DNA of 64,000 bases from Candidatus Aenigmatarchaeota archaeon (GCA_038997165.1 JAWBAK010000001.1:338337-402336); one strand, 5' to 3'. Shown: positions 36,304-59,421, counted from the first letter of the stretch. Numbers and translations are program-made. The notes: a model not told the origin generated them from the sequence alone.

Positions 36304-36352
36304 AGTATTATACTAAATGATTTTTCAAAAAGTCTTAGATTAATATTATTAT

Positions 36353-36501
36353 GCCGGGGTCGCCTAGTGGACATGGCGGCGGACTTGAGTGATAGATTGG
36401 CGTGAAACTGATAAGAGATATAAAAAATGATGTGGGTGTCGAAATAAGAAAGAAATCCGCTGGGCTCTAAGCCCGCGTGGGTTCGAATCCCACCCCCGGC
36501 G
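36353..36501 (+). tRNA. tRNA-Ser (TGA) with 65-nt intron at 37/38 (36390-36454)
   Basis: GCGGA-CT-TGA-G|intron|A-TCCGC; long variable arm; G73. Confidence 0.92.
36389..36454 (+). ncRNA. Intron-encoded box C/D-like sRNA
   Basis: GTGATAG-12nt-CTGA-15nt-ATGATGT-12nt-AAGA. Confidence 0.6.
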
Positions 36502-36531
36502 AAATTCTTTGAATTTTTTAAAATTATTTTT

Positions 36532-46438: not shown

Positions 46439-46488
46439 TCTGATAAATAGTTTTTCTTCATCATCTCTGTTGACCGTCGTTTCTTCAT
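46439..46488 (-). ncRNA. Box C/D sRNA
   Basis: ATGAAGA-AACGACGGTCAA-CAGA-GATG-ATGAAGA-AAAACTATTTAT-CAGA (12-nt guides). Confidence 0.7.
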
Positions 46489-53747: not shown

Positions 53748-53874
53748 TGCGGGGGGTGGGATTTGAACCCACGACGGCTCTACGCCATCGGGTTTCTTAT
53801 CATTTATTCAAAGCTTAAGATTTTATATCTTTATCTTAAGCCCGACGCCCTTGGCCAGGCTAGGCGACCCCCGC
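53748..53874 (-). tRNA. tRNA-Leu (TAA) with 41-nt intron (53794-53834)
   Basis: TCGGG-CT-TAA-G|intron|A-CCCGA; long variable arm; CUUA/UAAG splice helix. Confidence 0.92.
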
Positions 53875-56515: not shown

Positions 56516-56564
56516 TCAGAAGTACTCCTTTTCATCATTATTCAGATGCGGCGGCATTCTTCAT
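56516..56564 (-). ncRNA. Box C/D sRNA
   Basis: ATGAAGA-ATGCCGCCGCAT-CTGA-ATA-ATGATGA-AAAGGAGTACTT-CTGA. Confidence 0.88.
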
Positions 56565-57942: not shown

Positions 57943-58082
57943 GCCGGGGTCGCCTAGCGGAAATGGCGCCGGCCTCGAGTTAAATGATAAGCTCTGGGGT
58001 AGCTGAAAGATAATGATGATTTTGTTATAAGAGAAAGCCGGTGGGCTCTAAGCCCGCGTGGGTTCAAATCCCACCCCCGGCG
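57943..58082 (+). tRNA. tRNA-Ser (CGA) with 56-nt intron (57980-58035)
   Basis: CCGGC-CT-CGA-G|intron|A-GCCGG; long variable arm. Confidence 0.92.
57984..58032 (+). ncRNA. Intron-encoded box C/D sRNA
   Basis: ATGATAA-GCTCTGGGGTAG-CTGA-AAGATA-ATGATGA-TTTTGTTAT-AAGA. Confidence 0.75.
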
Positions 58083-59322: not shown

Positions 59323-59421
59323 TGGGGCCGCTGGGATTTGAACCCAGGTTAACGGGTTTCCTCATTTTATCGGTGCTCCATTTCTGGAGCCCGCCGTCCT
59401 ACCTGGCTAGACTACGGCCCC
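59323..59421 (-). tRNA. tRNA-Trp (CCA) with 26-nt intron (59358-59383)
   Basis: GCGGG-CT-CCA-G|intron|A-CCCGT. Confidence 0.92.

Follow-up and report, generated by a model that had tools for sequence, protein, structure and literature searches.

Eukaryotic box C/D snoRNAs are rRNA methylation guides that are released from introns of their host genes. In archaea, the intron-encoded C/D RNA of pre-tRNA-Trp was reportedly described by Clouet d'Orval et al. 2001 and by Singh et al. 2004. In the portions of the later literature that were available to us, the euryarchaeal pre-tRNA-Trp intron (Pyrococcus sR50; Haloferax volcanii) encodes a box C/D RNA (PMC7994747, PMC11408192), and a tRNA-Met intron of N. 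equitans, about 66 nt long, encodes a stable C/D-like RNA (Randau 2012, PMC3491384). The available text of PMC3491384 adds that, before that work, only tRNA-Trp introns were known with a functional C/D sRNA. As far as the accessible parts of these papers go (PMC7994747, PMC11408192, PMC3491384), intron-encoded archaeal C/D RNAs are described only for tRNA-Trp, where they are self-targeting, and for the N. equitans tRNA-Met. For E. coli A1408, Dennis et al. 2015 (PMC4644070) predict targeting by two C/D RNAs, sR13 in N. equitans and sR129 in S. acidocaldarius, and in the sections of that paper at hand archaeal A1408 methylation is published as a prediction and not as a measurement.

The locus that we describe here is the intron of a tRNA-Ser(UGA) gene. 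It lies in a 64,000-nt stretch of a Candidatus Aenigmatarchaeota genome (GCA_038997165.1, JAWBAK010000001.1:338337-402336), which we call the window and which is present in hot-spring metagenomes. Judging from its sequence, this intron is very probably an archaeal box C/D sRNA with two guides, which acts in trans and has the organism's own 16S rRNA as its target. Like the tRNA-Trp intron RNA, which can act in trans once excised according to the text available to us, it is a complete dual-guide C/D RNA at the canonical 37/38 position. It is unlike that RNA in its host, tRNA-Ser(UGA), in its guides, which match 16S rRNA and not the host tRNA (3 nt at most), and in its terminal C/D motif, which is degenerate and abuts the splice sites. 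The guides complementary to the host pre-tRNA (C34, U39) that mark the tRNA-Trp type are absent from the Ser(UGA) intron. An earlier note on this DNA had stated that the intron does not target its own anticodon loop, and this agrees with the longest complement between the intron and nt 30-37, which is 3 nt.

The RNA shares with the RNA from the intron of tRNA-Met in N. equitans, as presented in the part of that paper we had, that it is a C/D RNA in a DPANN tRNA intron; the tRNA is a different one, and no target is named there, whereas here both are assigned, with support from covariation. As with eukaryotic intronic snoRNAs (PMC7994747, available in part), the guide would come from an intron of a translation-apparatus host gene and act in trans. 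Unlike them, it would be released from a protein-spliced archaeal tRNA intron (EndA/RtcB) and not a spliceosomal one, by endonuclease cuts at box-flanking bulges and not by exonuclease trimming. With an rRNA guide that acts in trans encoded in a tRNA intron, this archaeon would have the arrangement typical of eukaryotic intronic snoRNAs.

In the available part of the supplement to PMC4644070, the sR13 sequence has GGCUUGAC before the D' box and GGAGGUGAU before the D box. This is also the guide pair of the Ser intron in a genome of the neighbouring genus (G008) and of most Aenigmatarchaeota cassettes. As in sR13 and sR129, going by that source, the D' guide is complementary to helix 44 (16S 1405-1413) with N+5 on A1408, and the second sR13 guide, GGAGGUGAU, is the ancestral Aenigmatarchaeota D guide, seen in G008 and many families. 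In contrast to sR13 and sR129, which appear as stand-alone genes in the text at hand, the Ser(UGA) RNA is a tRNA intron, and unlike sR13 the second guide of this genus points to helix 31 and no longer matches the 16S tail. C967 was not found among the 16S targets in the table entries C92x-C95x of the accessible part of PMC4644070, a table whose numbering is not mappable.

What is new here is the kind of host and the replaced second guide, while the sR13-like helix-44 guide was known already. In the full-text literature, which leaves subscription journals outside its coverage, no C/D sRNA was placed in a tRNA-Ser intron or a 16S intron, and a paper on Thermoproteales 16S introns (PMC4496867) does not mention an sRNA, a guide or methylation. 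Since the literature searched holds no such host and there is no Rfam family, we refer to the RNA as a box C/D sRNA, a local form of the sR13-like helix-44 guide. The cassette is conserved across a whole DPANN phylum and is backed by guide-target covariation. Where it sits inside its own 16S target gene, it offers a natural system for guide-gene movement and for guide swaps between scaffolds. It also makes approachable, in genomes of about 0.65 Mb, the question of whether A1408 decoding-site modification is tied to tRNA/rRNA processing.

The cassette in the tRNA-Ser(UGA) gene

Rfam placed a tRNA with a 68-nt anticodon-loop insertion at 36353-36501 on the plus strand of the window, and ARAGORN run with introns called it as tRNA-Ser(UGA) with a 65-nt intron after position 37. 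It is the single gene for this tRNA in the genome; two further ARAGORN 'Ser tga' calls were rejected because their anticodons read UGU and UAU on inspection. From the Rfam match and ARAGORN, exon 1 (36353..36389) covers positions 1-37 and ends in G37, and exon 2 (36455..36501) runs from A38 to the discriminator base. We count G37 as exonic because the intron-less paralogue tRNA-Ser(GGA) has the loop CUGGAGA. The 37/38 boundary is unable to slide because the bases that flank each boundary differ.

The 65-nt intron at 37/38 (36390..36454) is a box C/D sRNA cassette, an architecture that is kept in 8/8 aligned relatives. It starts with a degenerate terminal C box, GUGAUAG (36389..36395), of which the first G is the exonic G37 and the UGA (T38 G39 A40) is invariant in all eight. 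The 12-nt D' guide AUUGGCGUGAAA (DNA ATTGGCGTGAAA, 36396..36407), assigned from 16S pairing and covariation, is followed by a consensus D' box, CUGA (36408..36411), a 15-nt D'-C' loop (36412..36426) and a near-consensus C' box, AUGAUGU (36427..36433). Both of these boxes are read from the sequence and the alignment of relatives, and the loop from the alignment; population variants and indels are located in the loop. Next come the 12-nt D guide GGGUGUCGAAAU (DNA GGGTGTCGAAAT, 36434..36445), identified from 16S pairing and from a stand-alone sRNA of two congeners (G002 and G004), and a degenerate terminal D box, AAGA (36446..36449), placed from the aligned intron 3' ends. The invariant intron 3' tail AAGAA (36450..36454), defined by the consensus fold, closes the cassette and A38 follows at 36455.

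The C-D' and C'-D spacers are 12 and 12 nt. The pattern GTGA-15N-CTGA-N3-20-RTGATG-15N-GA has one match in the 64-kb window, which is the Ser(UGA) intron, and none in dinucleotide-preserving shuffles (0/100). In the terminal boxes (GUGAUAG/AAGA), the G-A dinucleotides for tandem G.A pairs are kept in 7/7 genomes of the genus and the rest is off consensus. By inspection of the alignment the D box is NNGA, with GA retained in 7/7 genus genomes; G008 has UUGA, further upstream. No Rfam box C/D family matches the intron (36340-36510, E up to 10), and in this interval the tRNA model alone was convincing; four more matches were listed, but all of them score well under the gathering threshold of their family.

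The C/D strings and 12-nt guides at 36389-36449 are exactly as the earlier note gave them. It had described a dual-guide C/D cassette that differs from the one in the intron of tRNA-Ser(CGA) (window 57943-58082, plus strand; AUGAUAA, 12 nt, CUGA, 6 nt, AUGAUGA), and this is what we found; the Ser exons are as similar as it had said (76/84 identical between Ser(UGA) and Ser(CGA)). Its further point, that the two introns share a D box, holds only in part. The Ser(CGA) intron does contain AAGA, yet just 9 nt downstream of C', and it fails the 12-nt pattern.

A canonical hBHBh' splicing motif has two 3-nt bulges, a 4-bp helix between them and flanking helices. In the consensus fold of the relatives, the anticodon stem leads to a 3-nt bulge, AA|A, and then to the pairs C32-G, U33-A and U34-A, which are kept in 8/8 (34-103, 35-102 and 36-101 in alignment numbering). 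The AAG of the intron tail pairs with U34, U33 and C32 to form the central helix of the splicing motif, and the final AA of the tail together with A38 forms the 3-nt bulge that holds the 3' splice site. Beyond these three pairs, G35.A comes first, followed by the bulge A36-G37|U, after which the GA of C lies opposite the GA of D. Compared with the canonical motif, the 3' bulge and three Watson-Crick pairs are invariant, G35.A stands as the fourth pair, and the C/D G.A pairs take the place of the outer helix. Our reading of this fold is that the C/D kink-turn may stand in place of the bulge-helix-bulge outer helix.

The earlier note had the C box straddling the 5' splice site, which is true at the sequence level (G37|UGAUAG). 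Joining 36454 to 36390 would give A-UGAUAG, so the first purine of the C box would come from G37 in the precursor or, as that note had proposed, from the junction in the circle. Folded by itself, the intron shows no significant structure (z = -0.58), and this is as expected for open guides. The genome (652 kb in 4 contigs, 24% G+C) encodes the machinery: fibrillarin adjoins Nop5 and L7Ae is also encoded, EndA has two catalytic-type domains in one 398-codon frame, and RtcB is encoded.

Probable targets in the 16S rRNA and guide-target covariation

The organism's own 16S rRNA gene is at C1:490232-491710. Positions 3-11 of the D' guide, counted from the box, pair with 16S 1364-1372 (UCACGCCAA) in 9 contiguous Watson-Crick bp, and N+5 falls on 16S A1366, which is E. 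coli A1408 in helix 44, at the decoding site. The same positions of the D guide pair with 16S 923-931 (UUCGACACC), again in 9 contiguous Watson-Crick bp, with N+5 on 16S C925, which is E. coli C967 in the helix 31 loop. The E. coli numbering is from a MAFFT alignment with E. coli 16S (1519 nt between the end motifs in that copy), and both mapped positions fall at the expected landmarks. A 9-bp run in 16S was reached by 11 of 1000 shuffled D' guides and by 14 of 1000 shuffled D guides. The earlier note had held that guides of this kind should have a target of about 9 bp, and each of the two has a 9-bp Watson-Crick match in the organism's own 16S. We rejected 23S, where the best Watson-Crick-only runs are 5 and 6 bp, and tRNAs, where the best such run is 8 bp.

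Several points count against the guide reading. By the standard of archaeal guides, duplexes of 9 bp lie at the bottom of the range. In the terminal C/D motif, UGAUAG/AAGA takes the place of UGAUGA/CUGA, and the N+5 rule is assumed for this degenerate motif. The D guide that matches helix 31 is common only to the three closest genomes (G000, which is the genome of this study, G001 and G005), and in G005 the helix-31 target has a U-to-C change for which the guide does not compensate, leaving 8 bp.

Conservation is strongest around the D' guide. Six congeners (G001-G006) and G008 have the same architecture in tRNA-Ser(UGA), and in 8/8 aligned sequences there is no change in the UGA of C, the UUGGC-UGA of the D' guide, the UGA of D' or the tail AAGAA|A, while the loop and the D-guide region diverge. 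The D'-C' loop is 3-15 nt across relatives (15 nt here, 3-4 nt in four congeners). Population variants from DNA contigs of three runs are in the loop and at degenerate box positions, and none are in the guides, D' or C'. Among the runs listed as containing the stretch none is an RNA run, and a metatranscriptome (X22) gave a single contig, which touches only the conserved 3' exon.

A 13-mer of guide plus D' box, GGCTTGACNCTGA, is present in 66/118 genomes of the order and 149/371 of the phylum, and its reversed control is rare. Pairing between the guide and helix 44 was assessed wherever a genome provides the cassette as well as its own 16S (the 16S of G008 and G003 is absent from their assemblies). 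It is at least 8 contiguous bp in 28/28 genomes, and 27 of these pairings are Watson-Crick only, with G010 needing one G.U. Compensatory changes occur at three helix-44 positions: this genus (g1) has UCACGCCAA with the guide UUGGCGUGA, most other genomes have GUCAAGCC with GGCUUGAC, genus g4 has UCAACCCAA with UUGGGUUGA, and family f5 has GCCAUC with GAUGGC. By reading the guide-box junctions, we found N+5 on A1408 in every host inspected, with no register shift. The guide variant GCUUGA of G008 predicts that its 16S has GUCAAGCC and not GUCACGCC. We regard the D' guide as a phylum-wide element of Aenigmatarchaeota.

A genome_contigs scan with TGANAGNTTGGCNTGANNCTGA gave 76 loci, of which six are Aenigmatarchaeota MAGs (G001-G005 and G008), four are other archaeal loci that on inspection have no tRNA context, and the remaining 66 are bacterial, a number close to the chance estimate. 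A metagenome_contigs scan gave 4 loci, none of which is a tRNA. A loose pattern with one mismatch was also tried across the order, and was too noisy for use.

The D guide has a different history. The ancestral type pairs with the genome's own 16S 3' tail over 7-12 bp in 20/20 genomes outside g1 for which the tail is available, and multi-base compensation between tail and guide is seen in G009 (UCACCAUAAA with UUUAUGGUGA) and in G011 (AUCACUACAAA with UUUGUAGUGAU). In 5/5 g1 genomes with the tail available, no more than 4 nt of the D guide are complementary to that tail. We take the ancestral guide pair to have been helix 44 plus the 16S 3' tail, and this genus has lost the tail target and refilled the D slot. 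We also observed that the g1 16S 3' tails (GGAUCACUCAGC, GGAUCACUUAAU and GGAUCCCUCUCAGC; C1:491690-491720, L034, L036, L054, L062) are without the CCUCC anti-Shine-Dalgarno, and that the 16S tails of genus g4 are also divergent and are matched by g4 D guides.

Within and near the genus the slot holds several different guides. Its target is helix 31 in G000, G001 and G005, and the D guide differs in G002, G003, G004, G006 and G008. In G003 it has 9 bp to the 16S A361 site and in G006 10 bp to 16S 866-877, and none of the own-genus rRNAs searched offers a match of 8 or more to the AT-rich intron D guides of G002 and G004. We argue that the helix-31 match is not a chance one because the GGGUGUCGAA core, with the same N+5 (C967), recurs in G002 and G004, where a stand-alone sRNA has it in front of a consensus CUGA. 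The homologue of this stand-alone C/D sRNA in the genome of this study (window 46439-46488, minus strand; C1:384775-384824) has a D guide that is AT-rich and lacks any rRNA match of 7 or more. As a side observation, 10 bp of its D' guide match 23S near position 2050. A second stand-alone dual-guide C/D sRNA, outside the window at C1:263694-263742 (plus strand), has 10-bp matches to 16S positions 489 and 361, the second being the A361 site that the intron D guide of G003 also reaches. It is conserved, including the D-guide sequence, in G002, G004 and G005; its homologue was not found in G003, where there was only a weak match to a different sRNA.

Hosts of the cassette and its proposed function

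We classified 51 loci from the 149 guide-holding genomes. Of the 31 in the order, 15 are in a tRNA-Ser(UGA) intron as called by ARAGORN, 4 more are miscalled by ARAGORN and have CUUGAG before the cassette, 9 are within a 16S gene, and 3 are chance matches without boxes. The 20 loci from other families of the phylum include 4 called tRNA-Ser(UGA) introns, 3 in 16S genes, 5 chance matches, and 8 that are uncalled or miscalled. In most of these 8, CTTGAG (or CTTGAA) stands upstream and the downstream flank resembles a tRNA 3' half (L239 shows only this downstream feature).

The sister genera g2 and g4, as well as G039 and G033, have the cassette inserted close to the 3' end of 16S, with a long inverted repeat closing the insertion. 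Insertions into 16S were listed for genus g2 (L038, L041, L042, L048, L053, L056), genus g4 (L037, L052), family f2 (L044, L057, L197-L200, L203-L205, L208, L179) and other families (L230, L231, L233). From a reading of the flanking motifs, they are at three or more different positions. The tRNA-Ser(UGA) of genus g2 has a short intron instead, whose guide matches its own anticodon loop. More broadly, many Aenigmatarchaeota 16S genes are interrupted close to the 3' end by about 90-130 nt that encode a box C/D sRNA, and the two guides of the 16S-inserted sRNA have their matches in helix 44 and in the 3' tail of the 16S concerned. Annotators should be aware that long tRNA-Ser introns and odd 16S 3'-end insertions in these lineages are probably functional RNAs.

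These loci bear on the suggestion in the earlier note that the guides are exchangeable cargo. As an exchange between the two Ser genes we found no evidence for it, each having its own long-standing cassette. In a wider sense it survives: the whole cassette moves between the tRNA-Ser(UGA) intron and 16S-gene insertions, depending on the lineage, and single guides move between the Ser(UGA) cassette and stand-alone sRNAs. A tentative and rather doubtful extension is that bulge-helix-bulge introns are movable carriers of guide-RNA genes, with the cassette relocated between the Ser(UGA) intron and at least three 16S positions, guides that hop, and excision coupled to L7Ae. As the C/D kink-turn would take the place of the outer helix in the splicing motif, excision may require L7Ae to bind. 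If this were true, the maturation of an essential tRNA, or of 16S itself, would be coupled to the production of a decoding-site guide.

We propose that the Ser(UGA) intron RNA most likely directs ribose methylation of two functional small-subunit rRNA sites. The box architecture, complementarity, covariation, the conserved N+5 register and the machinery genes are what the sequences show, and expression, excision, circularisation, RNP assembly and the methylations themselves are inferred. Pre-tRNA-Ser(UGA) would be transcribed, and the splicing endonuclease would cut a bulge-helix-bulge-like motif made of the anticodon stem, the AA|A bulge, a 3-bp helix and then the C/D G.A/A.G pairs. RtcB would join the exons and probably circularise the intron, and L7Ae, Nop5 and fibrillarin would assemble on the C/D and C'/D' motifs. 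The D' guide would then pair with 16S helix 44 and direct a 2'-O-methyl to A1408 (E. coli numbering) in the decoding site, and the D guide would pair with the helix 31 loop, leading to methylation of C967.

Other readings of the same features are possible. The cassette could be a 16S folding or processing chaperone and not a methylation guide, holding helix 44 and a second site during assembly. Such a role would suit the ancestral guides, which grip two 3' minor domain segments that are close in sequence, the many lineages where the cassette is inside the 16S precursor between its two targets, and the degenerate terminal C/D motif. We consider it very unlikely, as A1408 is at N+5 in every host and lineage inspected, which a pure pairing role would not require, and the 12-nt spacers and consensus C'/D' motif are retained in an organism that encodes fibrillarin and Nop5. 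The boxes could also be only an L7Ae-binding structural module that aids the endonuclease at a weak splicing motif, with the guides as target-less spacers. Many other tRNA introns here do have a D'-loop-C' like element beside the 3' splice site, and G.A/A.G pairs stand where the splicing motif would have its outer helix. However, guides without targets do not fit the covariation in 28/28 genomes, and a splicing aid does not fit a cassette that is also found away from tRNA genes, inserted into 16S and, in N. equitans, as a gene of its own; we strongly disfavour this reading and think it highly improbable.

A narrower doubt concerns the second guide, since it may be that only the D' guide works and that the 9-bp helix 31 match of the D guide in G000, G001 and G005 is fortuitous, in a slot that is decaying after the loss of the tail target. 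We believe this is unlikely, but there is more than one observation in its favor. The D guide varies in G002, G003, G004, G006 and G008, those of G002 and G004 are AT-rich with no rRNA match of 8 or more, the target change in G005 is uncompensated, and about 1.4% of shuffled guides give 9 bp by chance. Against decay, the same core and N+5 stand before a consensus D box in the stand-alone sRNA of G002 and G004, whose introns are without it, while the copy of this sRNA in G000 is without the helix-31 guide. The D guides of G003 and G006 also match 16S, with 9 and 10 bp.

Other guide-like RNAs of the genome

Six tRNA introns of this genome share a smaller arrangement. Each has a 6-7-nt complement to its own nt 31-36/37, one base, YUGA, 4-6 nt and then UGAxxG, and the N+5 rule leads to the wobble nucleotide 34 in 6/6. 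One is the intron of tRNA-Leu(UAA) in the window (53748-53874, minus strand), and the others are at C1:136196 (Leu(CAA)), C1:245970 (Gln(UUG)), C1:422074 (Met(CAU)), C1:475885 (Glu(UUC)) and C1:549078 (Lys(UUU)). The tRNA-Trp intron (window 59323-59421, minus strand) is similar by eye. Going by their motifs, we regard these D'-loop-C' like introns as a half-size, self-targeting version of the tRNA-Trp intron guide, spread across many tRNAs.

The window also has a stand-alone box C/D sRNA on the minus strand (56516-56564), whose boxes are consensus: AUGAAGA, 12 nt, CUGA, AUA, AUGAUGA, 12 nt and CUGA, and its best rRNA matches are only 8 bp. Cassettes related to the one in the Ser(CGA) intron were seen in the Ser(CGA) introns of three other families (L016, L021, L024). 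The Ser(CGA) D' guide has only an 11-bp match, containing G.U, to 23S around positions 2550-2560, and the same 23S region is also matched by a stand-alone candidate at C1:270135.
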